A DNA stretch of 64,000 bases from NCBI GenBank assembly GCA_030446545.1, contig JAUJNB010000001.1, forward strand, positions 280,885 to 344,884, in the 5' to 3' direction. Below are positions 11,849-48,835 of the stretch, piece by piece; positions within the stretch are counted from its first letter, which is position 1; every line of letters starts with the position of its first letter. The stretch comes from Acidimicrobiales bacterium (lineage in GTDB: Bacteria; Actinomycetota; Acidimicrobiia; Acidimicrobiales; CADCSY01). The notes beneath the pieces were generated by a model. The model had not been told where the DNA came from and ran no database searches. It worked only from the letters and a program-made list of their open reading frames with translations. A program made the translations under genes and the position numbers.

Positions 11849-11927
11849 CCGGCCGGGGAAAAGTGCCTTCCCGGGGGTAGTACCGTCTCGAGACGAACCC
11901 GCGGATCGCAACACAGAGGTGCAGCTG

Positions 11928-13417: not shown

Positions 13418-13469
13418 GCACCGACGCTTCTCCGTCGGGCCGAGTTGGACGACGGAGGACACCAGGGTC

Positions 13470-15915: not shown

Positions 15916-15921
15916 GGGGCG

Positions 15922-25730: not shown

Positions 25731-26237
25731 TCAGCTCATGACGGTGACCGGCACGGCGTAGAACATCACCAGGGCGAGAGCCACGTCGACGGCGTCGACC
25801 GTCTCGGCCATCTTGTTCGACCCCAAAACCCCCCCGAGGCTGGCTACCGGCGTGCGGTCCTCCCTTTCCAGCATCTCACGAGCGAAGCCGATCCTTCGAT
25901 AGAGGTAAGAACGGGGCCCAAGTCGGATCACGATCCCCCGGCGACGACGGCTGAGAAGGGCCGAGTCCGGTTGTACCGCCTCACCGCCGAGCGTTGCCAC
26001 CGACAACGCCACCGGGTCGACAAAGGACGTGTGTCGCCTGCCGTCGAGCCTTCCGAAGGGACCGAACTCGATGCTGGCGTCGGGCAGGTGGGGACCCCAA
26101 GCCCGGGTCCCCAGCCGGTGATCGGTGAAGCCCACCCAGGCTGGCCCGTACGGCCCCTCCTATCGAGTACGCACCTCCACACCCTCCGGGGAAGCCGGGC
26201 CATGCCCCGAGGGGTCACTGACGGTGAAGGTGGTCAA
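25731..26237 (-). pseudogene. multicopy ~170-aa family, copy with in-frame TAG
   Basis: TTG at 26237 gives LTTFTVSDPSGHGPASPEGVEVRTR, then TAG at 26160-26162 exactly where paralogs have the Tyr of Y-E-G-P-H/Y-G-P. It continues EGPYGPAWVGFTD..RAWGPHLP..GRLDGRRHTSFVD..LSRRRRGIVI..RSYLYR..VALALVMFYAVPV. Confidence 0.6.
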
Positions 26238-26246: not shown

Positions 26247-26780
26247 CTACGCCTGTGCCCTGATGGCGCTGTCGGGTACGCCATAGAACATCACCAGGGC
26301 GAGGGCCACGTCGACGTCATCTGCCTCCTCAGCCACCTGATGGGGCGCTCTCACGCCTCCGAAACTGACCACCGGAGTGCGGTCGTCGCGCTCCAGCAGA
26401 GGGCTGGAGATGCCGGCGATGCGGTAGAGGTATAACCGGGGCCCAAGATCGATCTTGATACCCCGACGGCGGCGATTGAACAGGGCCCAGTTCGGTTGCA
26501 CGGCATTCCCCGACAGCTCTCCCACGCCGAGGGCTACTGGATCCACGAACGACGTATGTCGCTGGCCGTCCAGTCGCCCCGAAGGGCCGAAGTCGAAGCG
26601 GGCGTCCGGAACAAGGGGACCCCACGCCTGAGTGACCTGGTCATTGTTCGTGTAGGCCGCGAAGACGGGTCCGTGGGGCCCGTCGTAGTAGCTGTGGGCG
26701 ACGGCACCCGGTGGAGCACCAGGTGCGTCGCCGGAGGCGTCTCCGAGCCTGAAGGTGATCATGGGCGGCTTCGCTCTCAC
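26247..26780 (-). CDS. multicopy ~170-aa family protein, copy 4
   Basis: GTG at 26780 overlaps the upstream stop (GTGA). VRAKPPMITFRL..YYDGPHGPVFAA..QAWGPLVP..GRLDGQRHTSFVD..FNRRRRGIKI..RLYLYR..VDVALALVMFYGVPDSAIRAQA. Confidence 0.7.
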   Translation of the reverse strand: MRAKPPMITFRLGDASGDAPGAPPGAVAHSYYDGPHGPVFAAYTNNDQVTQAWGPLVPDARFDFGPSGRLDGQRHTSFVDPVALGVGELSGNAVQPNWALFNRRRRGIKIDLGPRLYLYRIAGISSPLLERDDRTPVVSFGGVRAPHQVAEEADDVDVALALVMFYGVPDSAIRAQA

Positions 26781-27217
26781 GTCGGCTTCGCCGCCGACGT
26801 CTCGGGAGGGAGGGCGATCTGGACCAGGTACGCGTCCCCCCCGGTGACCACGAAGCCCCCGGGCCCGAGACTGATTCTGATGCCCCGACGGCAGCAGTTG
26901 AACAGTGCCCAGCTCGGTTGCACCGCGTTCCCCGAGAGCTCTCCCACGCTGACGGCCACCGGATCCAGGAACGACGTATGTCGCCGCCCGTCCAGTCGCC
27001 CGGAAGGGCCGAAGTCGAGGCGGGCATCGGAGACATGGGGACCCCAGGCCCGAGTGACCTGGTCACCGTCGGTGTAGGCCGCGAGGACGGGCCCGTGCGG
27101 CCCTTCGTAGTGGCCACGGGTCACTACCCCCTGCGGCGAGGGAGGTGCGTCATCGGCCGCATCTCGGAGGGTGGCGGTCTTTGTCAGCACTTCGGCGTCA
27201 CGTCGGCTCACCGCCAA
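26777..27217 (-). CDS. chimeric ORF: N-terminal ~105 aa of the ~170-aa family fused to an essC-like 3' tail
   Basis: HYEGPHGPVLAA..RAWGPHVS..GRLDGRRHTSFLD..FNCCRRGIRI is followed by SLGPGGFVVTGGDAYLVQIALPPETSAAKPT*. That tail parallels the frame-corrected end of the 33846..38090 gene (PGRGFLVAG..EAALVQVALPPEVPGPPAV*). The DNA shares CTGGTCCAG(A/G)TCGCCCT..CCCGAG. Confidence 0.55.
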   Translation of the reverse strand: MAVSRRDAEVLTKTATLRDAADDAPPSPQGVVTRGHYEGPHGPVLAAYTDGDQVTRAWGPHVSDARLDFGPSGRLDGRRHTSFLDPVAVSVGELSGNAVQPSWALFNCCRRGIRISLGPGGFVVTGGDAYLVQIALPPETSAAKPT

Positions 27218-27899: not shown

Positions 27900-28406
27900 C
27901 TACCCCTCTCGAGCCTCAGGTGCCCGGCGCACCAGGTCGTGCAGGAGCCGGGCCAGCTGCGGCGGATCCTGGGTGGCCACGGCGACGTAGCCGGGCTGAC
28001 CGCGCTCCTTCACGATGACGTAGCGGTCACCCACGGCCGCTCCCCACTGACCCCCCGCCACCCGCACGTCGCTGGCGCGGTCACCGAACCAGCCGCCGAC
28101 GGTACCGGTGAAGCGCTGGCCGGCCGCCTGCTCCTCGAGCGGGGCGGGATCGAGATCGGCCAGGGCGAAGCGCTCCTTGCCGATCCGCAGGGTTTCTTCG
28201 GTGACCTCCAGCTTCCCGTAGCGCCGCTTGCTGTAGACGTAGGGACCGATCCCACCCAAGCCCACGACGGCACCGCCGAGCACGATGCTCAAGGCGTCGC
28301 CGGGGGTCCGGAGCACCGAGTCGATTGCCGTGCCGAGGGCGGTGACGGCAAGCAGGACCCACAGCGGAGTGAGAGACCCGCCCGGCTCAGTGTGCAGAAC
28401 ATTCAC
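27900..28406 (-). CDS. two-TM membrane protein with DUF3093/bacterial-PH-like soluble domain (candidate immunity)
   Basis: GTG start overlaps the upstream stop (GTGA). TM segments are LTPLWVLLAVTALGTAIDSVL and ALSIVLGGAVVGLGGIGPYVY. The soluble part reads KLEVTEETLRIGKERFALADL..YVIVKERGQPGYVAVATQDPPQLARLL. Confidence 0.6.
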   Translation of the reverse strand: MNVLHTEPGGSLTPLWVLLAVTALGTAIDSVLRTPGDALSIVLGGAVVGLGGIGPYVYSKRRYGKLEVTEETLRIGKERFALADLDPAPLEEQAAGQRFTGTVGGWFGDRASDVRVAGGQWGAAVGDRYVIVKERGQPGYVAVATQDPPQLARLLHDLVRRAPEAREG

Positions 28407-28936
28407 GCCTGTGCCGTGATGGCGCTTACCGGCACGCCTGCGAACAGCACCAGGGCGACGACCACATCCACCGGATCGGCTGACTCGGAGATCGCGTGGT
28501 CTCCGGTCACACCTCCGAGCGCGGCCACCGTCGATCGATCACCCCGCTCCAATGACGGCCGGGAGAAGCCAGTCACACGATAGAGGTAGGACCGGGCCTC
28601 CAGAGTCACCGCGATCCCCCGCCCGCGGCGGCTGAACAAGGTCCAATTCGGTCTGACCATCGCCCCGGAAGCTCCACCCACGGTGAGCGGTACCGGGTCC
28701 AGGTAGAAGGCGAGCGGCTGACCATCCGACCGACCGAAGGGGCCGGCCTCCAGCTGAGCACTCGGTACATGAGGTCCCCACGCGAACGTCGCTTCTTGGC
28801 TCTCGTTGTGACCGACGTACACCGGGCCGTGAGGGCCTTCGTAGCGACTACGAGCTGCCGTGCCCTCGGGCGAGCGGGGGGCGTCGCGGGGAGCCTCGTG
28901 CAGGCGGAAGCTGGTCATGGACGTCCGCGAGCTCAT
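28403..28936 (-). CDS. multicopy ~170-aa family protein, copy 6
   Basis: ATG at 28936 overlaps the stop of the upstream remnant (ATGA). MSSRTSMTSFRL..RYEGPHGPVYVG..FAWGPHVP..GRSDGQPLAFYLD..FSRRGRGIAV..RSYLYR..VDVVVALVLFAGVPVSAITAQA. Confidence 0.7.
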   Translation of the reverse strand: MSSRTSMTSFRLHEAPRDAPRSPEGTAARSRYEGPHGPVYVGHNESQEATFAWGPHVPSAQLEAGPFGRSDGQPLAFYLDPVPLTVGGASGAMVRPNWTLFSRRGRGIAVTLEARSYLYRVTGFSRPSLERGDRSTVAALGGVTGDHAISESADPVDVVVALVLFAGVPVSAITAQA

Positions 28937-29174
28937 CCGGGTGCCTCCACGCCGGGCAACAGGGCGCTCAGGCGTCGCCACACCTCTCCTGAGGACACCG
29001 GCTCGAGGGTCACTCCCAGGGCAGGGTCGTCGTAGGCGGCGGCGGCGAGCACGATGCTCAAGGCGTCCCCGGGCCCTGGAGCACCGAGTCGACCACCGTG
29101 CCGAGGGCGGTGACGGCAAGCAGGACCCACACCGGCGTGAGACGCGCGCCCAGCTCAGCGTGCAGAACGCTCAC
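28933..29174 (-). pseudogene. deletion chimera: 5' end of a DUF3093-like gene joined to 3' end of an EspG-like gene
   Basis: VSVLHAELGARLTPVWVLLAVTALGTVVDSVLQGPG.. is near-identical at the DNA level to the start of 27900..28406. After a 1-nt loss it runs into ..DALSIVL|AAAAYDDPALGVTLEPVSSGEVWRRLSALLPGVEAPG*. Confidence 0.6.
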
Positions 29175-29707
29175 GCCTGTGCCTTGATCGCGCTGGGAGG
29201 TACGCCGTAAAACATCACGAGGGCGACGGCCACGTCGACGGCATCCGCCGTCTCGGTGATCAGATGGCTCCCGAGGACGCCCTTGAGACTCGCCACCGGC
29301 GTGCCGTTCTGCCACTCCAACAGCTCACGTGGAGCGATCCCCGTGATCCGGTAGAGGTACGACCGGTTCTCCAAGGTGACCACAACCCCTCGGTGGCGGC
29401 GGCTGAACAGTGCCCATTCGGGCCGCACCACTTCTCCGGAGAGAGATCCCACGTGCAGCGGCACCGGTTTCATGTAGGCCGCGACCGGCTGGCCGTCCAG
29501 CCGTCCCCAATGGCCGACGTCGAGCTGGGTAGAGGGCACGTTGGGCCCCCATACCCGGGTGGCGGTCTGGTCGTCGCTGTACCCGACGTAGGCCGGCCCG
29601 TACGGCCCTTGGTACCCAGCGCGCACCTCCACGCCGTCGGGCGAGCGGGGGGTGTCGTCGGAAACACTTCCCAGGCTGAAGGCCACCATGGGTGCCTTGG
29701 GGGTCAC
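29171..29707 (-). CDS. multicopy ~170-aa family protein, copy 7
   Basis: GTG at 29707 overlaps the upstream stop (GTGA). VTPKAPMVAFSL..GYQGPYGPAYVG..RVWGPNVP..GRLDGQPVAAYMK..FSRRHRGVVV..RSYLYR..VDVAVALVMFYGVPPSAIKAQA. Confidence 0.7.
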   Translation of the reverse strand: MTPKAPMVAFSLGSVSDDTPRSPDGVEVRAGYQGPYGPAYVGYSDDQTATRVWGPNVPSTQLDVGHWGRLDGQPVAAYMKPVPLHVGSLSGEVVRPEWALFSRRHRGVVVTLENRSYLYRITGIAPRELLEWQNGTPVASLKGVLGSHLITETADAVDVAVALVMFYGVPPSAIKAQA

Positions 29708-30983
29708 CGGGACACCTGCGCCACGCCCGGCAGCAGGGCGCTCAGGCGTCGCCACACCTCTCCCGAGGACACCGGCCCGAGGGTCACACCCAGAGCGGGG
29801 TCGTCGAAGGCGGCGTCGTCGGGCACCGAAGAGATCCAGTAGCCGGCCTCGACGGCGTCGACCACGGTGAGCGAGCGGCTCCGCCGGGACCCCTCTCGCC
29901 AGAGAGAGGTGGCTCGCCACGTCAGGCGCCGGCTGCCCACCATGGTTGCTACTGCCGTGGCCCCTTGTCGATCGAGCCGGCCTTTGCCCATCAGGGATGC
30001 CACCGCCCGGGAGCCGGCACCGGCGTCGACGTTGGCCATGGTGGCGTCGAGGAGGTGACGCTCGACGGTGACGGGATGGTCGAGCGCCGGGGCGGGGCGC
30101 CGGCGGTGCAAGGCCAACTTGAACCTCAGCCTGACATGGCCGAGAGCCAGGTCCCGGTCACCGGGGTGGGGCGTGTCGAGGAGCTGTCGGGCCAGACGGT
30201 CGATCTCTCCCGCGCTCACTCGTTGGGGCCCGACTACCGCCCCGGAAACGCCGTCGCCCTCCAGCAGCCACAGCCCGTCATCGGTCCCGAAGGCCCGCAC
30301 CGTGCGCTCCGGCGAGTCCGAGCGCCAGACCGGAGCGCGCTGCAGCGTGGTGGTGGCGGCGGCGGCGGTGAGCTGCTGGAGGTCGGGCACGGCCCCGGCC
30401 GACCCATTGGGCGCGACCGGCGACCCGTCGCCGGCCCGGCCGTCGGGATCCAGGGCACCAAAGACGTAGATCGCCTCCCGGTCCAGCGAGCGGAAAACCA
30501 ATATGTGCTGGCCGGACTGGGTGTCGACGTCGTCGTGCAGGGCGATCCCGTCGCCGAGGACCAGGGTCGCCCCGGCCCACCCCGCTCGCTCCCCGGATCC
30601 GTGGCGCCAGGTGAGCTGGCCGACCGCATGTTGGAAGGCATGGACAACGGCGTCGAGCAGGGGGTCGCACTCGACCTCGTCAGGGGCGTCCTCGGGGTAG
30701 GAGATCACCTCGTGGGCGACGTCGAGTCGCTCGACGGTCCGGGTCGACAACGACCGGAGCGACGGGGTCAGCGGCCAGAGGTAAGGGGTCCAGTGGGGGT
30801 CGGGCTCCTCGGGGAGACCCGCAAGCCCGCGGCACAGGACCAGTTCCTCGTCGAGGACCTCGCCCACCACCACATCGGAGCTGGCCGCCAGGCCCCCAGC
30901 CGGCCCCACTCCACCACCCCGGAGCGGTCGGCCAGGGCGGACAGGTCGACAGGACTGGTGAGGTAGGGGCCGTCAGCGGTCAT
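29704..30983 (-). CDS. two-part protein: unknown N-terminal domain + EspG-like C-terminal half; one apparent frameshift near 30895-30915
   Basis: ATG at 30983 (MTADGPYLTSPVDLSALADRSGVVEW) lies in the frame of ORF 30768..31076. The body is in ORF 29704..30909 (..GGLAASSDVVVGEVLDEELVLCRG..). The N-half is paralogous to 32905..33782. The C-half (LALHRRRPAP..SRRLTWRATSLWREG..TVVDAVEAGYWISS..VSSGEVWRRLSALLP) is paralogous to 23926..24714. Confidence 0.5.
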
Positions 30984-31532: not shown

Positions 31533-32515
31533 CTAGAAGATGCTTCCGAGGACCCTACCGGCGCCCTTGACCACCGAGGACGCTCCGTCGACCACTGCGT
31601 CGGCACCGCTGTCCATCCACTGGCCGATCTTCTCCCGGTGCTCGTAGGCGGTCGCACCCACTACGAGTACCGCTCCGGCGCCGGCGACGACCGGGTTGGG
31701 GGTCATCAACATGACGCTCCCGGCGGCCGTCAGCCCTTTGGTGATGGCCTTCTCGGTATCCCCCTTCTTGTATGCGTCGTAGGAGTCATAGGCGGAGAGT
31801 GCGGCCCCGGCCGCACCGAGCCCTCGCCCGGCAACCGTCACTACGCGACCGGCGCCGGGGACTTCAAGAAGTCCTGCACACGGCGCCCGGGACCGGTCAG
31901 CCCTCGGTTGGCCCGTAGGGCGTAGCGACTCTCGTTGGATCGGCGCAGGAGAGCTCGGCGGACAGCCTTGAGCTCCCGGTACTTCACCTTCTTGACGACT
32001 TGTATCTCCCGGCGCGCCATGGTGGCGCCGCCGGGCGTCATAGCCCGGATGCTCGCCGTCGAAGGCATGGGGCGACTGCCGAACTGGCGGGCGATGTTCC
32101 AGGTCTGCGCCCCCGCAGTGACGGCCCGGGTGCCGGAGACGCTGGTTCGCACCAGCCGCAAGATGGCTTCGGAACCGCTCGTGGCCGCGTCGGCCATGCG
32201 GATGCCGGCGGCGACCGACGACACGATCGAGCCGAAGTTACCCACGCCCTCTCGGTCGGCCTCCTCGGCGGCGGCACCCAACAGCCCCACGTTCTCGCCC
32301 AGGGTGACGATGAGGTCGGCGGCGCTGTCGATGGCCTCTCCGTGGGCCGGCAGGGGCGGGACGAACTCCGAGGAGGTGGAGCGGAAGCGGTTGAGCGCAT
32401 CCTCGACGTCTTCGCCGGTGGCCCGCAGGTCGTCGGCCAAGATCTCGAGGTCGGCCGCCATCTCGTACATGGCCTCGGGCACGAAGACGACGTCGTTGCT
32501 CACCGGGGCCCCCAA
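31533..32515 (-). CDS. putative secreted effector (paralog c), split into 31841..32515 and 31533..31841 by a frame break
   Basis: The N-part reads ..VSNDVVFVPEAMYEMAADLEILADDLR... The C-part reads VTVAGRGLGAAGAALS..MTPNPVVAGAGAVLVVGATAYEHREKIGQWMDSGADAVVDG. That aligns with RGLGVAGGAVS..VAPSPVTAAATIVTGVAWVGLEAWNHREEIAEVWNDGVDAVGD of 24731..25684. Combined length is 326 aa against 317 aa for the paralog. Confidence 0.6.
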
Positions 32516-32849
32516 CGCCCTCGAGCTCGAGGCGACGCCGCTCCTGTTCCTCCTCCAGCTGCTCCTGGCGCTCCCGGCGCCGCTCCTCGTCCTCCGCCAG
32601 CGCGTCGGCCAGGGCCTGGCGGATGGCGTCGGCGGTCTCCTCGAGGTTGCCGGCCTCGGTGCGCAGGATCTGGGCCAGGTCGTCGGCGTTGGCGTCGAAG
32701 CCCAGGCGAGACGCTCCCGACCACGCCCCCAGCTGGCCGGCGGAGGCCTGCACCAGCCGCTGGGCGGCGGCGTCGAGGTCCGACGCTGCCGTCATGCAGG
32801 CCTCGATGGCCTGACGGGCGGTGGCCTCATCGAAGTCGACGAGCTCCAT
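32500..32849 (-). CDS. small WXG-like helical protein; 3' end ambiguous
   Basis: ATG at 32849 inside ORF 32238..33059. Reads MELVDFDEATARQAIEACMTAASDLDAAAQRLVQASAGQLGAWSGASRLGFD (W-x-G), followed by a charged coiled-coil tail. As assembled the frame runs on over the next gene. A 1-nt shift in the GGGGG/CCCC run gives a TGA at 32500-32502 overlapping a GTG (GTGA). Confidence 0.5.
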
Positions 32850-32904: not shown

Positions 32905-33782
32905 TCAACCCCGGCGCCAACGCCGCTTCCATCGAGGGGTGTCGTCGCCGAGGGACAGGAGCTGGCGGGCGGCGGCCAGGATCTCCTGGTCGCCCAGTCG
33001 CTGCAGGACGGCGCCAGGCTCGGCGCCCCGCCGGCCCTGGAACAGCCACAGCCCGTCATCGGCGCCGTAGGCGGTGACGGCCTGCTCCTTCCCGCCGCCG
33101 GCGGTGATCCCGGCGGCGGCCATCACCGTGGTGGAGCGGGCCCGGCGGGCCAACTCCGCCACCCGGGGGCGACCTCCTCGACGGTGGCCGCCACCTCGGG
33201 GGCGACGGTGGTGGTGGAGCGGCCGGTGGGGTCGAGCATGGCCGCCAGCCACGCCGCCTGGCGCTCCTGGGTGCGCAGGACCATCTCGTGCAGTCCCGAC
33301 TCGGCGGAGATGTCGTCGTGTAGGGCTAGGCCGTGGGGAACCACGAACGCTCCCCCGATCGCCGTACCCTCGTCGACCACGTCGGTGCGCCAGGTCACCA
33401 GGGCCGAGGCCTGCTGGACCGCCCACACCAAGGTGGCATGGGGTTGTTCGAACACCGGGCCGCCGTCGTCGCCGAAGCTCAACTGCCCCCGGGACAACAG
33501 CAGGCGGACACAGGCCTGCTTGGCGATGTCGGCCTCCTCGGCGGCCAGTGCGCTCAGGTGCGCCGTCCAGTGGGGGTCGCCCGTCGAGTCGGGGTCGTCG
33601 CCGCACAGGACCACCTCCTCGTCGGTGAAGGTGCCCACCACGATGTCGTGGGCGCGGGCCACCTCGGCCAGGCGTCCCTTGGCCAGGTCGGTGCTGGTCA
33701 GGGACAGGTCCAGGGGAGCGGGGCGGTGGAGGTCGGGGTTGGTCGCCACCACCGGATGGTAGTGAAGGCCCCCACCAGCCAT
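32905..33782 (-). CDS. unknown-domain protein (paralog of the N-half of 29704..30983), one apparent frameshift near 33165-33185
   Basis: ORF 33123..33821 reads ..DLSLTSTDLAKGRLAEVARAHDIVVGTFTDEEVVLCGDDPDSTGDPHW..GLALHDDISAESGLHEMVLR. It continues in the frame of ORF 32905..34185: ..AVTAYGADDGLWLFQGRRGAEPGAVLQRLGDQEILAAARQLLSLG. The start may be 33782 or 33821. Confidence 0.5.
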
Positions 33783-33845
33783 GCCGGCCAACCAGGGTCT
33801 TGCCCGCACCAGAGAGTCCACCGGCTCGGCGTGGAGAACGGCCGC

Positions 33846-36800
33846 TCAAACGGCCGGCGGCCCCGGCACCTCGGGGGCAGGGCGACCTGGACCAGGGCTG
33901 CCTCTCCCCGGCCACGAGAAAGCCCCGTCCCGGCACAAGGGCGACGGGGACTCGACGGGGCAGGCGTTGGCCCAGGAGCTCGCCGTCGGCGGACAGGTTG
34001 GGTTGGAGCAGGATGCCCGTGCGCGACTGGCGCAGGCCCTGGTCCAGTGCCCGTAGGCCGCCCGTAGATCGTCGCTGCGCCCGGCGGCCACCACGTGCAG
34101 GCCCGGCCGGCGTGACTGCAGGAGCGTCCCCAGCAGGCCGTCGACGTCGTCCACCTGGGGGGCGTCGTCGACGAAGACGAACCACCGACGACCGTCACCC
34201 GGGGCCACCCGGATGACCTGGGCCAACTGCGACAGGGTCCCGGCGGCGTCGAGCGCCTCCAGGGGATGCAGCGACGAGCGATCGTCACAGACCCCCACCA
34301 GCACGGTGGCCGGGTCGGCCCGGCGCACCAGGCTGGCCATCAGGGCCAGCGTGGAGGTCTTGCCACTGCGGGGCGGCCCGGCCACCAGCACGTGGTCACC
34401 GGCGTGCAGGGTCAGCACCGCCGGGCCGAGGTCGTCGTCGGCGATCCCGACCGTGAGCTCCACCGGCGCAGGCTCCAGCTTGGCCCCGCCCGGCAGCTCG
34501 TGGAAGGCCAAGGAAGGCGGGAGCCCCCGGATGACGGCCGGAGGCGGGCGCCGCCCGGCACCCGTTCCCCGCAGGAGGGGCGACAGGTCACCGGGATGGC
34601 CCACCTGCATCACCAGCTTGGTGGGCCCGTGGACGGCCCGGCCGGGGACGAAGGCCGGCAGTCGCTTCGGTCGCAGCCCGATGGCGGAGAAGTCGGCCGG
34701 GTCCGCCAGTCGGAAGAGGATCTTCTGGCTGACCAGGGCGGCCATGCGCGCCGGGAGCGATCCGGGACGCTCGCCGGCGACCACGAACAGGATGTCCACC
34801 TCGGGCCCGTCGGCGAACACCCGCCGGAAGGCCTCGGCCGTCTCGGTGCTTTCGATTCCCTCATGTTCGGCCACAAAGGCGCCGATGCCGTCGATGAGCA
34901 CGACGACGCGGGCCTCCCCCGCCCGGTCGCTCGGGCTCAGGGCGCGCCGACGGTCGAGCTCGCGACGCAGGTAGCGAACCAGCCGGAGCTGACCCTCGTG
35001 ATCTCCGGCGGGCACGACCGCCCCGACGTCGTCATGGGCCACCAGGGGGGCCAGGCCTCCCGCCCCGAAGTCGACGGCGTAGACGTGCCAGGGCCGGTCC
35101 TCGCACCGATGGAGCAGCGAGCGGGCCACCGCCAGCAGGGCCGTGGTCGTGCCGCCGCCCACCATCCCGAAAAGGGCCAGGTGCCCGTCGGCCGGGTTCC
35201 ACCCCACCACTGCCTGACGCTGGTGCTCCGGGTCGTCGGCCAGAGCGAAAGGCACGGTCCCGACGTCGGCCTCGAGCAAGAGGATGTCGTCCAACTCGAT
35301 TCGGTCGCTCAGCATCTCGAGCCACGGCCGCCGAGGTGGTGGCGCCTGGCCCCGTTCGAAGGCGGACACCACGGCGTCGACCAGGCGGGCCAGGTCGCTG
35401 GGCCCGTTACCGGGCTCGGGCCCGGTCGCGGGCGACGAGGGAAGGGAGCCGAAGCCAAAGGGGCTCAGGCGCAGGGCGGTCGTCCGCCGGGCCTGGCGGG
35501 TGGCGGTGGCCAAGGCCGTCTGTACCAACTCGACATCGGTCGGGCCCGACCGGACGTAGGCCCTGCCGGGGTTCGACCGGGCAATGGCGGCCGCATCCTT
35601 GCGGTCGATGATGTCGGAGGAGTCGCCGGCGTCCTGGACACGAAGGGCGATGCGCAGGTTGGTGTTGGCCTTGATGTTGCCGTTCACCGCTCCCGACGGC
35701 CGCTGGGTGGCGAGCACCAGGTGCACTCCGAGGCTGCGGCCCCGCTGCGCCACCCCGACCAGGGCGCCCAGGAACTCGGGAAGTTCGCTGGCCAGGGTGG
35801 CGAACTCGTCGACCACCACCACCAACCGGGGCAACGGACCCGAGGGCGAGCCGCTGCGCAGGTAGCTGGCCTGGTCCTGGGCGGCCGACACCCGCAGCAC
35901 GCGTTCTCGATGGGCCAGCTCGGCCTCCAGCGAGGTGAGGGCCCGCTCCCCGAGGTGTTCGTCGAGGTCGGTGACCAGCCCGACGACGTGGGGCAGACGG
36001 GCGCACTGGTCGAAGGCGCTGCCCCCCTTGTAGTCGACGAGGACGAACACCAGGTGGTCGGGGTCCACCCGGGCCGCCAGGCCGGCGACCAGAGAGCGCA
36101 GCAGCTCGCTCTTCCCCGACCCGGTGGTGCCGCCCACCAGGGCATGGGGCCCGTCGCGCACCAGGTCGATGTCGACCATCCCGCGCTCGCCCATGCCGAT
36201 GGGCGTGCGCAGGGGCGGGTCGGGCAGGCCCCGGGACCACGCCCGGGCCACGACGTCGGGGTCGACGTCGTCCATCTCGAGCAGGGGCAGCAGCCGCACC
36301 AGCTTGGGCAGGCCGCTCCCGAGCACCTCCAGCTCGGAGTCCTCGTAGCGGGCCAGGGCCCGGGCGGTGGCCCGAGCGGTGGCGTCGTCGACCCCTCCGA
36401 TCAGAAAGGCGTCGATGCGCACCCGGTCCCGGGGCCGACGGAGGTCGGCATCGCCCAGGGGCCGGAGGTCGACCACCACGGTGCACATGGCCGGCAACTG
36501 GTCCTCGCTCGGGGCCAACACCACCCCCGCCACCGGCCCGGCCGCACCGTTGAGCACCAGGCGGGCCGGGGCCCGCCGACCCTCGACGAGCGCCACGTCG
36601 TCGACCACCACCAGTCGGGTGCGGCCTCCGCTGGTGTCGGCCGGACGCGACCGCAGGCGCGAGCCCGGTCCGCCCTCGTCCCCGGAGGAGGCCAGCAGCT
36701 CGCTCAGCAGCGCCTCGCAGGCCGGGCGGTCACCCGCCAGCAACCGGGACGACCCGTCCACATGGCGGGTGTGGGGCAGCCACTTGGCCCAGTCCCAGTC

Positions 36801-38090
36801 GGAGGTATGCCCGCCGGAGGCCAAAACCACCACGGCCAGGTCGGCCGGCCCGTGATGCACCGCCGCCTGGCACACCAGGGACCGGGCCAGCGCCAGGCCG
36901 GCGGCCCGGTCCCCGACCAGTCCCACCACCCCCCCGGACGAGAGGTCGACCTCGACGGGAGCGTCGTGGAGCAGGGTGAAGCGGGCCATCACCCGGCCCA
37001 CCTCTTCGTCCATCTCGTCGCGAGGTCCCTCGACGGGCGGTGACCAGGGGACGGGGCCGGTCCCGGCGCGCAAGGCGAGGAAATCGTCGTGGACGGGACG
37101 ACGCTGCCAGAGCGTGGTACTCGGTGCGTGGGCCCGGCGCAGCGTCTCGGCGATGTCGACCAACCGTTCCTCGCCGCGCCGGACCTCGGCCGCGGCGGCG
37201 GCTCGCAGGGCCTGGTCGAAGGCCTCGAGGGCAGCTCGGAAATCCCGGCCTCTCGCCTTGTTCTCCTTGGTCGTCCGACGCCGGGACGACACGTAGTTGC
37301 CGATCATCATGATCGGGCTGAGCAGCATGAACAGGGCGAATCGGGGATCACGGTAGAAGTAGATGAGCGCTCCGCCCATCAACAGCGGGGCCACAACCGT
37401 GATCACGCTGAAAGCCCGGCTACGGCCGGAGCCCCGGGGCGGTTCCGGCGCTTTGATCGGCGGCGGTCCCTCAGCCGGCGCCGGGCGGGGCGGTCGGTTG
37501 AACGGGACGAGCCCGCCCACGGCCCGGTGCAGCGGGTCGATGGCCAGCGGCCGGTCGTCGGGGAGGCGCAGGCGCAGGCGCGCCTGGGTGGCGCCGAAAC
37601 GCACCAGGGCGCCCGGAGGCACGGGCGTGGGCCCGAGCACCGGGTGCCCGTCGATCCAGGTGCCGTTGTGTGACTCGAGATCGGTCACCACCACCGAGCC
37701 GTCGGGGACGACGTGGAGGCGGGCGTGGTGGGCCGAGAGGGTGGAGTCGGCCAGCGCCACCTCGCACGCCGGCGAGCGGCCCACCACCACCTCGCCGGGG
37801 CCGAGAGGGTGGGCCGATCCCGCCCCACGGCCGCCGACGAACATCAGGGTGGGGCCCTCGCCGGCGACTCGGGCCACGGGGGCCTTGCCGGCCACGTGCA
37901 CCATCGCCCCCTCGTGCAGGCCGATCTCGTCCAACCCGGCGTCGGCGCCGAAGTACCGCTCGGCGATGACCACCCCGGCTCCAGGGGCGGCGCCGATGGC
38001 GGCCACGAGGTCGGACACGCACGCCTGCGGGTGTTCGATGTCGAGGTCGAGCTCCTGCTCGGCCCCGTCGTGCACGACGACGATCTGCAC
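33846..38090 (-). CDS. FHA-domain FtsK/SpoIIIE-family triple ATPase (EssC/EccC-type T7SS-like coupling ATPase)
   Basis: 1414-aa ORF with a GTG start 12 nt after the tadA stop. FHA-like core: VVVGRSPACEVALADSTLSAHHARLHV..LESHNGTWIDG. Two TM helices: AFSVITVVAPLLMGGALIYFY and FALFMLLSPIMMIGNYV. Three P-loops: GGTTGSGKSELLRSLV, degenerate GMVGGGTTTALLAVA, and GPPRSGKTSTLALMA. The last ~70 codons as assembled look like off-frame junk. The expected ..LRQSRTGILLQPNLSADGELLGQRLP..PGRGFLVAG.. and ..EAALVQVALPP.. lie in the other two frames, implying about 3 single-nt indels near 34040, 33905 and 33875. Confidence 0.85.
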   Translation of the reverse strand: MQIVVVHDGAEQELDLDIEHPQACVSDLVAAIGAAPGAGVVIAERYFGADAGLDEIGLHEGAMVHVAGKAPVARVAGEGPTLMFVGGRGAGSAHPLGPGEVVVGRSPACEVALADSTLSAHHARLHVVPDGSVVVTDLESHNGTWIDGHPVLGPTPVPPGALVRFGATQARLRLRLPDDRPLAIDPLHRAVGGLVPFNRPPRPAPAEGPPPIKAPEPPRGSGRSRAFSVITVVAPLLMGGALIYFYRDPRFALFMLLSPIMMIGNYVSSRRRTTKENKARGRDFRAALEAFDQALRAAAAAEVRRGEERLVDIAETLRRAHAPSTTLWQRRPVHDDFLALRAGTGPVPWSPPVEGPRDEMDEEVGRVMARFTLLHDAPVEVDLSSGGVVGLVGDRAAGLALARSLVCQAAVHHGPADLAVVVLASGGHTSDWDWAKWLPHTRHVDGSSRLLAGDRPACEALLSELLASSGDEGGPGSRLRSRPADTSGGRTRLVVVDDVALVEGRRAPARLVLNGAAGPVAGVVLAPSEDQLPAMCTVVVDLRPLGDADLRRPRDRVRIDAFLIGGVDDATARATARALARYEDSELEVLGSGLPKLVRLLPLLEMDDVDPDVVARAWSRGLPDPPLRTPIGMGERGMVDIDLVRDGPHALVGGTTGSGKSELLRSLVAGLAARVDPDHLVFVLVDYKGGSAFDQCARLPHVVGLVTDLDEHLGERALTSLEAELAHRERVLRVSAAQDQASYLRSGSPSGPLPRLVVVVDEFATLASELPEFLGALVGVAQRGRSLGVHLVLATQRPSGAVNGNIKANTNLRIALRVQDAGDSSDIIDRKDAAAIARSNPGRAYVRSGPTDVELVQTALATATRQARRTTALRLSPFGFGSLPSSPATGPEPGNGPSDLARLVDAVVSAFERGQAPPPRRPWLEMLSDRIELDDILLLEADVGTVPFALADDPEHQRQAVVGWNPADGHLALFGMVGGGTTTALLAVARSLLHRCEDRPWHVYAVDFGAGGLAPLVAHDDVGAVVPAGDHEGQLRLVRYLRRELDRRRALSPSDRAGEARVVVLIDGIGAFVAEHEGIESTETAEAFRRVFADGPEVDILFVVAGERPGSLPARMAALVSQKILFRLADPADFSAIGLRPKRLPAFVPGRAVHGPTKLVMQVGHPGDLSPLLRGTGAGRRPPPAVIRGLPPSLAFHELPGGAKLEPAPVELTVGIADDDLGPAVLTLHAGDHVLVAGPPRSGKTSTLALMASLVRRADPATVLVGVCDDRSSLHPLEALDAAGTLSQLAQVIRVAPGDGRRWFVFVDDAPQVDDVDGLLGTLLQSRRPGLHVVAAGRSDDLRAAYGHWTRACASRARASCSNPTCPPTASSWANACPVESPSPLCRDGAFSWPGRGSPGPGRPAPEVPGPPAV

Positions 38091-38102: not shown

Positions 38103-39476
38103 TCAGCCCCGGTAGGGCGACGAGGGGCGGGCGGCGCCTGCGGTCCCGGCCTGGTCCCACCATCCCTGGGGTCGGCTCAACACCGAGGGGTCGAAGCCGG
38201 CCTCTTCCAGGTCGGCCTGGGTGCGGCTGCGCAGGGGCGCCCCGGGGACGGCCCGGCGATCCGGTCCCGGCTCGAACACCTCGTTGGAGATCACCATGGA
38301 GCCTTCGGCCCCCACCACCTCCCGGATCGAGGAGATGTAGCGACCGAACCGGCGCTCGTGGGTGTCGCGCCCGACGTAGACGACGAAGTCGAGGGCATTG
38401 GCCACGATGAGGTTGGTGGCCTCCAGCGGGAGGCGCTCGGGCGCCTGCACCGCGTACATGGCCAGCTTGCCAAAGGCGCCGGCCGAGGAGTTGGCGTGGA
38501 TGGTGCACATCGAGCCGTCGTTGCCCTGGCTCATGGCGTTGAGCATGGGCAGCACCTCGTCGCCCCGCACCTCACCGACGATGACCCGGTCGGGGTCCAT
38601 GCGCAGGCCCCACCGCACGAGCGCGGCCAGGGTGATGGCTCCCTCGCCCTCCACGTTGTGCTCGCGGGCCTCGAGGGCCACCACGTCGGGGTGGAGCTCG
38701 GGATAGCGGTCGACACCGAGCTCGAGGTTGTCCTCGATGGTGACCAGGCGCTCGTCGGGGTCGATCTCGTTGATGAGGGCCCGCAACAGGGTGGTCTTGC
38801 CGGCGTCGACCCCCCCGCAGACGATGATGTTCTTGCGGGCCCGCACGGCTGCGGCCAGGAACTCCTGCAGGGCGAGGTCGATGGTGCCCAGGCCGACCAG
38901 GTCTTCGAGGAACAGCTTGGGATAGCGGTGGCGGCGGATGGCCACGCACGGGTGCGACGTCACCGCCATCACCGCGAACAGGCGGCTCCCGTCGGGCAGC
39001 TGCACGCTCAGTCGAGGAGCGCCGACATCGAAGCGCCGCTCGGTCAGGCCCACCCGGGCCGCCGTCATCCGCAGCGTCTCGATCAGCTCCTCGTCGCTGT
39101 CGGCGATGGCCGGCCCGAGCTCCTTGGTGCCGTCGGCCCGGGTGATCCACACCTCGGCCGCGCCGTTGATGTTGATGTTCTCGATGGTCTCGTCCTCGAG
39201 CAGCCGCTGCAGGGTGCCGAGGCCGAAGAGGGCGTCGTGGACGGCCTGGGCCAGCGACATCTCCTCCTCGGCGGAGAGGGGGACACGCCCCTCCTCGAGC
39301 TCCTCGCGGGCGAAGACGGCCAGCCGCTCGTTGATGAGCTGGCGCCCGAACAGGCGCTGGTCGACCTGGCTCAGCCGGGCGCGGCTGGAGGCGGTGTCCT
39401 CACGCAGCCGGTCGGTCAACTTGTCGGCCACCTCCTGGCGGAAGCGGCGGACGAGCACCTGGTCAGCGCGGTCCAT
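38103..39476 (-). CDS. tadA: CpaF/TadA-family type II/IV secretion ATPase
   Basis: ATG at 39476 (MDRADQVLVRRFRQEV) inside ORF 38103..40130. Walker A is VCGGVDAGKTTLLRAL. Also shows RVIVGEVRGDEV and MSQGNDGSMCTIHANS. Confidence 0.9.
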   Translation of the reverse strand: MDRADQVLVRRFRQEVADKLTDRLREDTASSRARLSQVDQRLFGRQLINERLAVFAREELEEGRVPLSAEEEMSLAQAVHDALFGLGTLQRLLEDETIENININGAAEVWITRADGTKELGPAIADSDEELIETLRMTAARVGLTERRFDVGAPRLSVQLPDGSRLFAVMAVTSHPCVAIRRHRYPKLFLEDLVGLGTIDLALQEFLAAAVRARKNIIVCGGVDAGKTTLLRALINEIDPDERLVTIEDNLELGVDRYPELHPDVVALEAREHNVEGEGAITLAALVRWGLRMDPDRVIVGEVRGDEVLPMLNAMSQGNDGSMCTIHANSSAGAFGKLAMYAVQAPERLPLEATNLIVANALDFVVYVGRDTHERRFGRYISSIREVVGAEGSMVISNEVFEPGPDRRAVPGAPLRSRTQADLEEAGFDPSVLSRPQGWWDQAGTAGAARPSSPYRG

Positions 39477-42354: not shown

Positions 42355-43854
42355 TCATGCCTCGTCGGTCTGGCTCTCGGTGGGAGCCGGGAGATCAGGT
42401 GGGACGACGGCGCCGCCCCGCAACACGATCTCCTGGCATCCGCCTTTCCCATCATCGCTCACTTCGGGGGAGGCGTCGCGCTGGTTGGTCTCCACCGCCG
42501 CCGCGCTGGGCAGCGGTTCGCCGGGTCGGGCCCAGGTGAGGAAGTAGAAGACCTGGCCGGTGGCCGGACGGTAGAGGCCCGGGGTGTCGGTCCCGTCACA
42601 GTCCCAGTCGCCGAGGAGGAAGGCGTCGTCGGGCTGGCCCAGCTGGAATCGCCGGGGCTGCGACTCGGCCGGGTCGACCACCGCCTCCACCACGTCTCCC
42701 TGGCGGACGACGAAGGTGTCACAGCCGTCGCCGTCGAGGTCCCCCTGGAGCAGGGCCGAGCCCTCAGGCCGCGATGGGGGCGCAAGGGCCGTACACGCCG
42801 GCGCCCGGACCCCGCCGGAGCCGGCCTCACCCGACAGCAGTGCTCGCAGGGGGCCAGCCAGGACGGTGAGCACGGCCAGCCCGGCCAGCACGCCGCCGAG
42901 CACCAACACCCGGGATCGGCGGCGGGACGGAGCCAGCGCCGGACGGGGTGGCCGAGGACCGAAGGTGCTGGTACCCCGGGCGCCGGCATCACCCCGGCCT
43001 GCGGGCCCGAGGGTGGCCGGCAGCACCGCAGCGGTGGCACCGAGCGACGCCCGAAGGTCCCGGGCCAGGTCGGCCGCGCCGGCGTAGCGGTCGGCCGGAC
43101 GCCGGGCCATGGCCCGCTCGACCACCGAGGCCAGGGCGTGGGGGACCTGGGGATCTGCTGTGAGCGGCGGGTGGCGGCCGCGGTCGGCGGCCCGAACCAC
43201 GGCCAACGGGGTCGTCCCGGCGAACGGCGGTCGCCCGGACAGCGCCTCGTAGCAGACGACGCCGAGGGAGTAGACGTCGCTCCGGACATCGGGATGGCCG
43301 CCGTCCAGGAGCTCCGGGGCCAGGTACTCAGCCGTCCCGGCCACCGACTCCTCGGCGGTGAGGGCCTGGGCGAAACGCCGGGCCACGCCGAAGTCCGACA
43401 GCAGGGGCTCCCCGTCGGAGGTGAACAAGATGTTGGCCGGCTTGACGTCGCAGTGCAGCACCTGGCGCCGATGAGCCGAGGCCAAGGCGTCGGCGATGGG
43501 GGCGGCCAGGGCCACCACCTCACCTGCGGCCAGTCGTGGGCGCCGGGCCAGGACGTCGGCCAGCGACCCTCCCGGTGCGTACTGCATCACCACGGCCAAG
43601 CCGTCGCCTTCGTCGATCACCTCGATCACCCGGACGATGTGTGGGTGATCGAGCTGGGTCAACACGGTCGCCTCGTCCCGCAGACGCTCCACCTCGCGCC
43701 CCTCCACACCGGGGCGCAGCCGCTTGAGCGCCACCACCTGGCTGACCGGACCAATCCGCCGGGCGCGCCACACCACTCCGGTCGAGCCTGAGCCCAACTC
43801 CTCCTCGAGCTGGTAGCTCCCGAACGTCTGCCGCCGAGCAGTGCCGTCGATCAC
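42355..43854 (-). CDS. transmembrane Ser/Thr protein kinase with FG-GAP/VCBS-like extracytoplasmic repeats
   Basis: GTG at 43854 inside ORF 42355..45087. Hanks motifs: GSGSTGVVW, VALKRL, HCDVKPANIL, DFG, TAEYLAPE. One TM segment (VLVLGGVLAGLAVLTVLAG). Extracytoplasmic part: GDLDGDGCDTFV and LGDWDCDGTDTPGLYRPATGQVFYF. Confidence 0.85.
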   Translation of the reverse strand: MIDGTARRQTFGSYQLEEELGSGSTGVVWRARRIGPVSQVVALKRLRPGVEGREVERLRDEATVLTQLDHPHIVRVIEVIDEGDGLAVVMQYAPGGSLADVLARRPRLAAGEVVALAAPIADALASAHRRQVLHCDVKPANILFTSDGEPLLSDFGVARRFAQALTAEESVAGTAEYLAPELLDGGHPDVRSDVYSLGVVCYEALSGRPPFAGTTPLAVVRAADRGRHPPLTADPQVPHALASVVERAMARRPADRYAGAADLARDLRASLGATAAVLPATLGPAGRGDAGARGTSTFGPRPPRPALAPSRRRSRVLVLGGVLAGLAVLTVLAGPLRALLSGEAGSGGVRAPACTALAPPSRPEGSALLQGDLDGDGCDTFVVRQGDVVEAVVDPAESQPRRFQLGQPDDAFLLGDWDCDGTDTPGLYRPATGQVFYFLTWARPGEPLPSAAAVETNQRDASPEVSDDGKGGCQEIVLRGGAVVPPDLPAPTESQTDEA

Positions 43855-47948: not shown

Positions 47949-48835
47949 CGACTGGGTGCCACACCTCCGAGCTGCGCCCTGATCTCGACCACAAACCAGC
48001 GCCGGAACGCTCGTACCTGGTCCGAGGCGGCCAGGGTCAGCAGCGCCCCCTCGGCGCAGTACCGGTCGGCCTCCTCCAGCAGCTCGACCACCCGGTCGAG
48101 AACGTCCAGGGCCTCGGGGGGCAGCTCCATCGACAGGTCGACCGTGGCCTCACCGCGCTGCTCGGCTTCGTCCACCTGGGCTTCCAGCAGGGCGGTCTCC
48201 CCGGCGAAGCGATCGGCCAGTTCCTCGCTGAGCGCCACCAACCGGGCCGGCACGCCGGTGGCATCGGCGTCGTCGAGGGTCATGAGCACGAACTCGCGGA
48301 TGAGCCCCTCTCGGTGCTCCTGTGAAGCCCGGTACAAGGCCAGGGGGACCCGTTCGAGGCAGACCCTTGACGAGCACGTGGTCACGCCGGGCGGGACCTG
48401 ACGCTCCGGGGTGGGTTCGTGGCCCCCTGGGGTGGGCACGGGAAGGTCGAGCTCGAGCTCGAACCAGACCGACTTGCCCCCCTGCGCATCCGGTCCCTCG
48501 TCGAGCTGCACCCCCCACCGGTCCGAGAGCAGCTCCACCAGCTCGAGCCCGCGCCCGGTCTGTGACTCCCGGTGGTGCGCCCGGGGCGTGGGCAGGGCGG
48601 CGCTGAGGTCGCGAACCTCGACCCGCAGGAGCTCGCCTGAGACCTCCACCACCAGCTCGGCTCGTGAGCGGGCGTGCAGCACGGCGTTGGTCACGAGCTC
48701 CGACACGAGGAGCTCGGCGGTCTCGGCGTCACCCGGACGGCCCGACGCCATCAGGGCCTCGGCCACGAAGCGCCGGGCGGCTCTCACACTGCTCGGGTCC
48801 GCCTCCAGGGTGGTGCTGCGCTCCACCGCAGCCAT
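47933..48835 (-). CDS. RsbW/SpoIIAB-like HATPase_c protein with extra C-terminal domain
   Basis: 300-aa ORF. SSVRAARRFV..LVSELVTNAVLHA..GRGLELVELLSDRWG forms an anti-sigma-kinase-like ATP-binding fold. The C-terminal ~150 aa were not recognised. Confidence 0.65.
   Translation of the reverse strand: MAAVERSTTLEADPSSVRAARRFVAEALMASGRPGDAETAELLVSELVTNAVLHARSRAELVVEVSGELLRVEVRDLSAALPTPRAHHRESQTGRGLELVELLSDRWGVQLDEGPDAQGGKSVWFELELDLPVPTPGGHEPTPERQVPPGVTTCSSRVCLERVPLALYRASQEHREGLIREFVLMTLDDADATGVPARLVALSEELADRFAGETALLEAQVDEAEQRGEATVDLSMELPPEALDVLDRVVELLEEADRYCAEGALLTLAASDQVRAFRRWFVVEIRAQLGGVAPSRWGAR

Follow-up and report, generated by a model that had tools for sequence, protein, structure and literature searches.

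The locus described here raises the question of which machine is served by a large FtsK/SpoIIIE-type ATPase whose gene directly follows tadA. The gene occupies positions 33846–38090 on the minus strand of a 64,000-nucleotide stretch of DNA from an Acidimicrobiales bacterium (assembly GCA_030446545.1, contig JAUJNB010000001.1, positions 280,885 to 344,884). This whole stretch is termed the window, and all positions given below refer to it. We consider it likely that the gene encodes the membrane motor ATPase (EccC/EssC-type) of a minimal, kinase-gated type VII secretion system (T7SS), which would export WXG-like proteins and toxins and form a lineage distinct from those described. As for the copy in the window, an assembly error has garbled its 3' end or the gene has lost its activity.

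The open reading frame (ORF) of the ATPase comprises 1414 amino acids as deposited and 1415 amino acids with the three bases discussed below restored. The start codon is GTG, and the N-terminus agrees with the family consensus MQIV. The G+C content of the third codon positions is 0.90 in a window of approximately 72% G+C, which identifies the ORF as the coding frame. The stop codon of tadA and the start codon of the ATPase gene are separated by a spacer of 12 nucleotides (TGA CCCCCGCTCCTG GTG), which was read directly from the sequence, and an identical gap is found in the closest relative, the Logan contig L001. This short spacer without an obvious Shine–Dalgarno sequence had already been pointed out in the original prediction, which was made from the sequence of the window. 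No GGAGG-like element was found in the 12 nucleotides, and from such a gap translational coupling of the ATPase gene to tadA may reasonably be inferred.

The protein is composed of a ubiquitin-like (Ubl) domain, an FHA domain, a linker with a PFNRPPRP motif, two transmembrane helices, a DUF, and the three ATPase or ATPase-like domains D1, D2, and D3, in this order. The following parts were delimited:

37887–38090, minus strand: ubiquitin-like β-grasp domain, residues 1–68, from AlphaFold2 models and Foldseek (V25 and G61 invariant in 63 sequences)
37572–37850, minus strand: FHA domain, residues 81–173, from Pfam and Foldseek (pocket residues G104-R105, S119..H122, and N142-G143-T144)
37482–37505, minus strand: invariant PFNRPPRP motif in the linker preceding the membrane segment, from family conservation
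37290–37412, minus strand: two transmembrane helices, residues 227–246 and 251–267, from the hydropathy maximum (the alignment to the EccCa model begins at residue 210)
36231–37223, minus strand: stalk and DUF (degenerate, NTPase-like), residues ~290–620, from the coverage by TIGR03924/TIGR03928 and alignment to the DUF of YukB and Thermomonospora curvata EccC
35511–36230, minus strand: ATPase domain D1, with family-wide invariant Walker motifs (A: GGTTGSGKSE; B: VVVVDEFA)
34611–35243, minus strand: ATPase-like domain D2, Walker A Lys replaced by Thr (GxxGSGTTT), Walker B D-G without the catalytic Glu
33849–34493, minus strand: ATPase-like domain D3, GPPRSGKTS, Walker B DD, last ~55 codons scrambled

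The N-terminal part carries the most distinctive features. Pfam assigned residues 101–166 to FHA (PF00498) with an E-value of 1.3e-14 and 54.7 bits (gathering cut-off 20.7), and the pocket residues R105, S119, H122, and N142 are conserved, so that both the score and the phosphothreonine-binding residues qualify the domain as an FHA domain. An AlphaFold2 model of residues 1–230, based on 63 sequences, reached a mean predicted local distance difference test score (pLDDT) of 88.7. It displays an 11-stranded FHA sandwich at residues 81–173 and, ahead of it, a β-β-α-β-β...β unit at residues 1–68. Foldseek searches with this 230-residue model retrieved the phosphothreonine-binding FHA domains of Rv0020c, GarA, and OdhI (E-value ~1e-8, target TM score 0.83–0.93); the matches were confined to FHA domains, and no β-grasp match was among them. 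When the first 77 residues were modeled alone (pLDDT 89.2), Foldseek matched ubiquitin and ubiquitin-like proteins with TM scores of 0.65–0.70, including the ubiquitin-like domain of EccD5 from the ESX-5 structure. At the level of the predicted fold, this confirms residues 1–68 as a ubiquitin-like β-grasp. A Pfam search for YukD gave no match in the window ATPase; a faint SAMP2 match on the Aquihabitans homologue was the sole related one.

Pfam detected FtsK_SpoIIIE (PF01580) with an E-value of 8e-37, and the third P-loop was detected at residues 1234–1344. In the window protein, the P-loops read GGTTGSGKSE (residue 653), GGGTTT (residue 975, without Lys), and GPPRSGKTS (residue 1238). Counted over 62 homologues, Walker A (GGTTGSGKSE) and Walker B (hhhhDEFA) of D1 are invariant. 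The Walker A motif of D2 (GxxGSGTTT) has Thr in place of Lys in 58 of the 62 proteins, with D-G in Walker B, and in D3 the residue after GPPRSG is K in 32 proteins, R in 13, V in 11, and T in six, with D-D in Walker B. Judged by these motifs, D1 is the only module with complete Walker A and Walker B sequences and the predicted sole complete ATPase. For D2 and D3, a role in regulation and docking is the most plausible one, by analogy with what is established for EccC and EssC. An N-terminal FHA domain, a "possibly β-grasp-like" N-terminus, the two transmembrane helices, and the three P-loops with a degenerate middle one had all been proposed in the original prediction and were borne out; the YukD or ubiquitin-like Pfam assignment that it had suggested as a check was not obtained.

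The architecture is not peculiar to the window. A protein search yielded 765 matches with E-values ≤1e-10, 120 of which were listed. All of the 120 listed proteins are 1100–1570 amino acids long and contain both PF00498 and PF01580. The named sources among the matches listed are Egibacteraceae, Acidimicrobiales/Acidimicrobiaceae, Aquihabitans sp. G128, metagenome-assembled genomes (MAGs) labeled "Actinobacteria", and one Chloroflexi MAG; the closest named ones among them are Egibacteraceae MAGs (59%–61% identity), followed by Acidimicrobiales (46%–56%). A protein of Rhizocola hellebori (Micromonosporaceae) shares 35% identity and the same layout and has a degenerate FHA domain. Residues V25 and G61 of the β-grasp and G104, R105, S119, H122, N142, G143, and T144 of the FHA domain are invariant or nearly so.

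The arrangement of two transmembrane helices, a DUF, and three tandem FtsK/SpoIIIE P-loop modules is that of a T7SS membrane ATPase. The NCBIfam models gave strong matches throughout, but with scores below the respective cut-offs for EssC (TIGR03928, 483.9 bits vs. 778.4, residues 253–1153), EccCa (TIGR03924, 360.8 vs. 509, residues 210–860), and EccCb (TIGR03925, 250.2 vs. 347). Among proteins in the PDB, T. curvata EccC (4NH0) was the best match (237.7 bits), followed by YukB (209.5 bits), EccC5 (187 bits), and FtsK (63 bits). Over the DUF and D1, YukB reached a single-domain score of 189, which exceeds the 158 of T. curvata EccC. The subtypes T7SSc to T7SSj have been defined by Garrett, Higginson and Palmer 2024 (PMC11217815). 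A D1 tree was calculated from the ten representative ATPases of their supplementary Figure S2, YukB, T. curvata EccC, and seven members of the present family by neighbor joining with 100 bootstraps, the supports being counted as unrooted splits. The splits separating the family, T7SSa, and T7SSb–j from the respective remaining sequences were each recovered in 100 of 100 replicates. A grouping of the family with TsdC/TseC or with T. curvata EccC was recovered in 0 of 100. The D1 domain of the window protein is 41%–47% identical to those of the T7SSb–j ATPases (TsdC 42%), 40% identical to that of T. curvata EccC, and 30% identical to that of EccC5. The fully supported splits, together with the lack of any grouping with TsdC/TseC or T. 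curvata, indicate a third branch outside any named subtype. According to its D1 sequences, the family is a T7SS ATPase lineage distinct from the described T7SSa–j, and its members can be classed neither with canonical EssC nor with canonical EccC.

The differences from both canonical types extend beyond D1. With EssC/YukB of the T7SSb (Staphylococcus aureus, Bacillus subtilis), the window ATPase shares an FHA region N-terminal to the transmembrane helices, a D1 that is 41%–45% identical, degenerate D2 and D3 domains, and a gene 3' end that co-varies with the downstream substrate genes. However, EssC possesses two FHA domains without a phosphothreonine pocket, which bind the pseudokinase EssB/YukC, whereas the window ATPase possesses a single competent FHA domain and has a real kinase encoded nearby. 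The ubiquitin-like partner YukD/EsaB, which contacts the FHA domains in the T7SSb, is a separate protein there and is fused in cis in the window ATPase. In addition, no EssA, EssB, or EsaA was found among the Pfam-scanned neighbors in the window, and the score of 484 bits with TIGR03928 falls short of the required 778. With EccC of the T7SSa (T. curvata, mycobacterial ESX systems), the common features are the best full-length PDB match (4NH0, 238 bits), the layout of stalk, DUF, and D1–D3, the C-terminal motif LRxSRTGxLLQP...LPRR...GRG, and the presence of EspG-type chaperones and T7SS_signal toxins in the locus. In contrast to the window ATPase, EccC lacks FHA and Ubl domains, the Ubl domain of the T7SSa being located on EccD. 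EccB, EccD, EccE, and MycP were not found in the scanned ORFs of the window or in 12 related loci, the D1 identity is 30%–40%, and the scores lie under the EccCa and EccCb cut-offs.

The original prediction had assigned the protein to the T7SS-type triple ATPases, which is supported by the EssC score and by EccC and YukB as best PDB matches. The phylogenetic check that it had proposed, carried out on the D1 domains of T7SS ATPases, places the protein in a clade of its own and not with EssC or EccC. The statement that an FHA domain is a hallmark of firmicute EssC and not of actinobacterial EccC no longer holds, since TsdC of the actinobacterial T7SSd carries an FHA domain (PMC11217815), as do all 120 matches listed, of which those with a named source belong mostly to the Actinomycetota. 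The label "EssC-like" for the architecture does not fit either, given the single FHA domain with an intact pocket, the fused Ubl domain, and the kinase.

The proposed function is based in part on the genes surrounding the ATPase gene. On the minus strand, from high to low coordinates, the order is Ser/Thr kinase, LysM membrane protein, CpaB/RcpC-like protein, CpaE-like protein, TadA, and the ATPase. These are followed by an island of ~13 kb with EspG-like, WXG-like, toxin, and repeated immunity-like genes, and then by genes for a TadB-like protein, TadC (T2SSF), the WXG-like protein p206, a Flp-like pilin, three TadE/TadG-like pseudopilins, and a toxin with a T7SS_signal domain. The features relevant here are:

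42355–43803, minus strand: membrane Ser/Thr kinase (Pkinase, E-value 2e-46; complete GxGxxG (GSGSTG), VALK, HCD..KPAN, DFG, and APE motifs)
38103–39470, minus strand: tadA/cpaF ATPase gene (Pfam T2SSE, E-value 1.3e-35; identity to L001 92%, gene arrangement unchanged there)
32505–32849, minus strand: WXG100-like helper gene, 116 amino acids, 96.5% identical to its counterpart in L001, stop codon lost
31533–32503, minus strand: putative toxin with Gly-rich membrane tail, a single ORF of 323 amino acids in L001, two ORFs in the window
20479–21151, 23436–23935, 25731–26135, 26247–26780, 26777–27217, 28403–29119, and 29171–29920, minus strand: immunity-like paralogues, from nucleotide identity
23926–24882, minus strand: EspG-like chaperone (Pfam ESX-1_EspG, E-value 7.7e-6, 26.1 bits, cut-off 27)
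17964–18470, minus strand: p206, a helical WXG-like protein of ~170 amino acids with a W-E-G motif (weak Pfam WXG100 match, E-value 0.025)
14353–15921, minus strand: toxin candidate with T7SS_signal (PF21725, E-value 2.4e-13) and DUF2515, the C-terminal ~125 codons out of frame (switch at ~14728)

The kinase encoded at 42355–43803, with all of its catalytic motifs complete, is a candidate for the enzyme that generates the phosphothreonine recognized by the FHA domain. This gene or a homologue of it lies within 10 kb of the ATPase gene in seven of 11 informative loci, those of sufficient length for a judgment (window, L003, L004, L006, L012, L014, and L016). The predicted extracellular C-terminal part of the window kinase (42355–42900, minus strand) contains repeats of the type D-x-D-G-D-G-x-D/T (GDLDGDGCDT, GDWDCDGTDT), which suggests a calcium-binding or FG-GAP-like sensor domain.

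A possible link to a T7SS comes from small WXG-like proteins. p206 is encoded within the Tad operon of the window, between tadC and the gene of the Flp-like pilin, and next to the ATPase gene in most relatives. In L002 (two copies), L004, L006, L007, and L011, a p206 homologue is encoded immediately behind the ATPase, and in the majority of the 12 family loci the ATPase gene is followed by a homologue of p206 or by a small WXG-like gene. Weak WXG100 matches were also obtained beside the homologues in L013 and L016. In L003 and L012, the ATPase gene has a downstream gene for a protein of 183 amino acids; these proteins share 7%–10% identity with p206 and were rejected as homologues. For the EspG-like chaperone, paralogous C-terminal modules are encoded within 29704–30909, and an N-terminal module is encoded within 33123–33821.

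From these observations, the following mechanism is proposed. The kinase would sense an envelope or external cue and phosphorylate a threonine, either its own or one of the ATPase or of a partner protein. The FHA domain would bind this phosphothreonine and, together with the Ubl domain in cis, order the cytoplasmic N-terminus, upon which the ATPase would oligomerize into an active channel. D1 would hydrolyze ATP and drive export, D2 and D3 would serve regulation and substrate docking, and the C-terminal end of D3 would recognize the WXG-like/toxin complexes encoded just downstream. A comparable switch operates in the H1-T6SS of Pseudomonas aeruginosa, where the membrane Ser/Thr kinase PpkA and the FHA reader Fha1 gate the assembly of a secretion machine post-translationally. 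That secretion system is unrelated and has its FHA domain on a scaffold protein of its own, and the comparison is an analogy only. YukD stabilizes and fixes the FHA domains of YukB and enables assembly (PMC12637312); the Ubl domain in cis may, by analogy, take over this role of the free YukD/EsaB. A gating function of the FHA domain would likewise resemble the kinase/FHA control proposed for the T7SSd/e (PMC11217815) and for the Esx system of oral Actinomycetales (PMC13622651).

Several results weigh against a complete and kinase-gated T7SS of a separate lineage. The kinase gene is absent within 10 kb in four of the 11 informative loci (L002, L011, L013, and L015). The WXG100 matches of the small neighbors in the window are weak (E-values 0.025–0.036, under the Pfam cut-off), and the EspG match is slightly under its cut-off as well. 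Genes for EccB/D/E, MycP, EssA/B, EsaA, or a TsdI-like protein were found neither in the scanned ORFs of the window nor in the 12 related loci. Finally, the D1 tree represents one domain, was calculated with a distance method, and includes noisy sequences obtained by optical character recognition from a supplementary PDF.

Further genes of the region were noted. At least seven paralogues of ~135–180 amino acids, 66%–78% identical at the nucleotide level and without a Pfam match, alternate with small transmembrane proteins and putative toxins between 20479 and 29920; they look like an array of immunity genes. In Pfam searches, nothing was found for the five-member immunity-like paralogue family, the paralogue of 401 amino acids, or the TadB-like and CpaE-like proteins. 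A two-gene block encoding a lipoprotein with an LGAAC lipobox and a second secreted protein is duplicated with 79% nucleotide identity (11791–13418 and 21465–23083, plus strand; also 14171–14378 and 23130–23326). This block may belong to the Tad/T7SS supercluster, because in L004 homologues of both genes are located next to each other's Tad-associated neighbors, with the gene of the LysM protein on one side and cpaB on the other. Two adjacent genes at 46320–48835 (minus strand), judged by reading the translations, resemble a partner-switching pair of a putative HAMP plus PP2C/SpoIIE-type phosphatase and a putative RsbW-like anti-sigma kinase. Rfam and tRNA scans of the window yielded only two tRNAs, which are unrelated to the locus.

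The 3' end of the ATPase gene requires separate consideration. The annotated C-terminus (...HWTRACASRARASCSNPTCPP...) resembles an out-of-frame translation. The other two frames contain, successively, LRQSRTGILLQPNLSADGELLGQRLPRRVPVALVPGRGFLVAG and GEAALVQVALPP, the motif with which every homologue ends. L001, whose product P0002 is 82% identical to the window ATPase, served as reference for a DNA alignment, which revealed the cause:

33870–34040, minus strand: three 1-nucleotide deletions relative to L001, at ~34036 (GGGC^CTG), ~33910 (G5 to G4), and ~33878 (C6 to C5)

The gap at ~34036 is alternatively a change from C3 to C2 if the original codon was GCC. With the three bases reinserted, a protein of 1415 amino acids with the canonical end ...HWTRALRQSRTGILLQPNLSADGELLGQRLPRRVPVALVPGRGFLVAGGEAALVQVALPPEVPGPPAV is obtained, in agreement with the three single-nucleotide corrections called for in the original prediction. 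The deletions scramble ~55 C-terminal residues. Since they add up to a loss of three bases, the reading frame is restored for the last nine codons and the stop codon, which explains why gene callers and the NCBI record report an intact protein of 1414 amino acids.

The same alignment points to an exchange of this end. The identity to L001 in a sliding window is 75%–90% along the ATPase gene (~84% in the body), 92%–97% in the last ~250 nucleotides, 93%–99% in the helper gene, and 70%–80% in the toxin gene. Relative to L001, ~900 nucleotides (32960–33766, minus strand) are inserted behind the ATPase gene and ahead of the gene of the WXG-like helper, and within this insertion lies a paralogue, with a frameshift, of the N-terminal module found in the 401-amino-acid protein (29704–30909). 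In addition, the 3' end of another ATPase gene has left an orphan remnant (...GPGGFVVTGGDAYLVQIALPPE) at 26777–26870 (minus strand), fused in frame to the immunity-like ORF at 26777–27217. This remnant is ~75% identical to the ATPase 3' end over ~70 nucleotides, represents a different allele, and is evidence of a past recombination at this site. A repeat at the ATPase 3' end would account for poor polishing there, but a blastn self-comparison of the window disclosed no long repeat at this end, only the diverged remnant of ~70 nucleotides at 26.8 kb. Taken together, the raised 3' identity, the insertion, and the orphan remnant reveal recombination at the substrate-recognition end. By this sequence pattern, the last ~250 nucleotides and the adjacent helper gene appear as a recently exchanged module, following the logic of the 3' variation of essC in Staphylococcus and Listeria. 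Such recombination is known for essC variants (PMC5994694, PMC10327511).

The three deletions could be real, in which case the window copy of the ATPase gene is an inactivated pseudogene and part of a decay that affects the entire T7SS/Tad/toxin island of this strain. To follow the coding frame throughout the window, a Viterbi path based on codon usage was used, and same-strand switches with a distant stop codon in the old frame were kept. Candidate switches were located at 11049, 11358, 14728, 19167, 21005, 31205, 32514, 33162, 33840, and 34047. All of them fall within 11–34 kb, where the candidate frameshifts number about 12 altogether, and the remaining ~40 kb (1–10 kb and 34.05–64 kb) gave no candidate. 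tadC (18637–19561, minus strand) is broken near 19167, with the T2SSF match (E-value 1.3e-10) of its C-terminal half (18637–19167) in another frame. The helper gene lost its stop codon by a deletion at 32463 (G6 to G5), and the toxin of 323 amino acids in L001 is divided into ORFs of 224 and 102 amino acids by a 1-nucleotide deletion near 31810. A further deletion (G3 to G2) distinguishes a pair of paralogues, and additional frameshifts affect the T7SS_signal toxin at ~14728 and the EspG-like gene at ~33162.

The confinement of these frameshifts to a single island, from tadC, the toxins, the helper, and the EspG-like gene to the three events in the ATPase gene, also fits a real decay. The deposited NCBI protein (P0001), which is identical to the frameshifted translation, agrees with decay too, and a ratio of indels to substitutions of ~1:10 in the conserved module is possible for a young pseudogene. 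On the other hand, all six resolvable frameshifts are 1-nucleotide deletions, at least four of them in G/C runs, which is the classic signature of consensus errors. Three events within 160 nucleotides and none in the remaining 4.09 kb of the gene, the 4 kb body of which shows zero indels relative to L001, are unlikely under neutral decay. Furthermore, the island is rich in repeats and variable among strains, where polishing fails. Two scans of metagenome contigs for an independent copy found neither the G4/C5 nor the G5/C6 version of the 3' end. The type of deletion and the restriction to a repeat-rich, strain-variable region therefore favor residual errors of the assembly consensus, which on the sequence pattern we regard as the better explanation of the three ATPase deletions and the island frameshifts, with decay retaining a smaller though appreciable chance.

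Two observations on reading frames stand beside this. The p206 homologue on the JGI metagenome contig L004 (14364–14847) aligns in two frames, and its called gene covers only 70 amino acids; frameshifts in the p206 gene family are thus not limited to the window assembly. The short ORFs at 10173–11848 (plus strand) are seemingly one or two genes spread over three or four frames, with switches at ~11049, ~11358, and possibly 11597.

Irrespective of the 3' end, the close association with Tad genes invites the idea that the ATPase does not serve an independent T7SS. The Ubl-FHA ATPase and the Tad apparatus might form one hybrid machine, with the Tad platform or pseudopilins as the route of T7SS substrates through the wall, or two machines under the switch of one membrane Ser/Thr kinase. 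In the window, both sets of genes are intermixed and share one direction (cpaB, cpaE-like, tadA, ATPase, toxin island, tadB, tadC, p206, flp-like, three tadE-like genes), tadA adjoins the ATPase gene in L001, and full Tad clusters adjoin it in L003, L012, and L004. Such a unit, if real, would explain why no other envelope-spanning T7SS component was found, why a WXG-like gene is located between tadC and the pilin genes, and why a linkage of T7SS and Tad arose independently in the Bacillota, in which T7SSg and T7SSh, the latter with an EspG-like protein, always adjoin Tad genes (PMC11217815). The resemblance to T7SSg/T7SSh comprises the complete Tad cluster and the EspG-like protein (TshG); however, these systems belong to another phylum, their ATPases lack FHA domains and fall into a different D1 clade, and the ubiquitin-like protein is encoded by a separate gene. 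Tad genes are found nearby in five of 12 loci (window, L001, L003, L004, and L012) and are absent within 10 kb in the other seven, the relative gene order differs among the loci, and adjacency alone is no proof of a physical coupling. We therefore regard a joint T7SS–Tad unit in either form as improbable.

An even smaller chance is given to the ATPase simply being the TsdC orthologue of the published actinobacterial T7SSd, as described for Olsenella and Bifidobacterium. The T7SSd combines a membrane kinase with an ATPase whose FHA domain retains the GR/SxxH/NG residues, and it is reported to lack a ubiquitin-like protein (PMC11217815). The origin from Actinomycetota, the N-terminal FHA domain with GR/SxxH/NG, and the membrane Ser/Thr kinase nearby are the T7SSd features stressed in that study and recur in the window, as do the two transmembrane helices, the DUF, and the three P-loops. 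Yet the family never grouped with TsdC/TseC in the D1 tree, and the identity of 42% to TsdC is not above that to other subtypes. TsdC is 1563 amino acids long compared with 1415 for the window ATPase, and its N-terminus resembles an extra FHA-like module, whereas the window family has a fused Ubl domain ahead of a single FHA domain. A TsdI-like large envelope protein with Ig repeats (~1650 amino acids) was not found among the ORFs at 14–46 kb of the window or in the 12 related loci, and the window locus contains EspG-like and Tad genes, in which it differs from the T7SSd. Moreover, Acidimicrobiia and similar taxa are not mentioned in PMC11217815 or its supplements.

A TraB/FtsK-like DNA translocase of the kind found in Streptomyces plasmids, belonging to a conjugative or integrative element, which the original prediction had named as the finding that would overturn it, has only the membership in the FtsK/SpoIIIE superfamily and a faint TrwB_AAD_bind match in its favor and can be set aside, as the TraB model NF041214 scored 29.1 bits (cut-off 800) and FtsK 65 bits, the three tandem P-loop modules with a DUF constitute the T7SS layout, and no relaxase, replication, spread, or other conjugation genes were found in the flanks, which hold Tad, EspG-like, WXG-like, and T7SS_signal toxin genes.

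The preferred reading thus remains a motor ATPase of a distinct, kinase-gated T7SS. A T7SS ATPase with an FHA domain is known from other systems; of interest here are the fusion of Ubl and FHA domains, the competent FHA domain together with a kinase, and the interleaving with Tad genes in a widespread, unnamed family. The homologues are currently annotated only as "FtsK/SpoIIIE domain-containing" proteins or "DNA segregation ATPase", and the deposited protein of the window gene has a scrambled C-terminus. The natural fusion of Ubl, FHA, and ATPase domains acts as a "Rosetta stone": It lends independent support to an action of YukD on the FHA domains of the ATPase and offers a single-chain model for it. 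With the intact phosphothreonine pocket and the linked kinase, phospho-regulation of a T7SS becomes directly testable, and the recurring linkage to Tad genes raises the question of a cooperation between both systems. The family represents a widespread environmental lineage of actinobacterial T7SS, found in Acidimicrobiia, Egibacteraceae-type Nitriliruptoria, and some Actinomycetes, and belongs to a diversity of these systems beyond mycobacteria and firmicutes whose cataloguing has only just begun.

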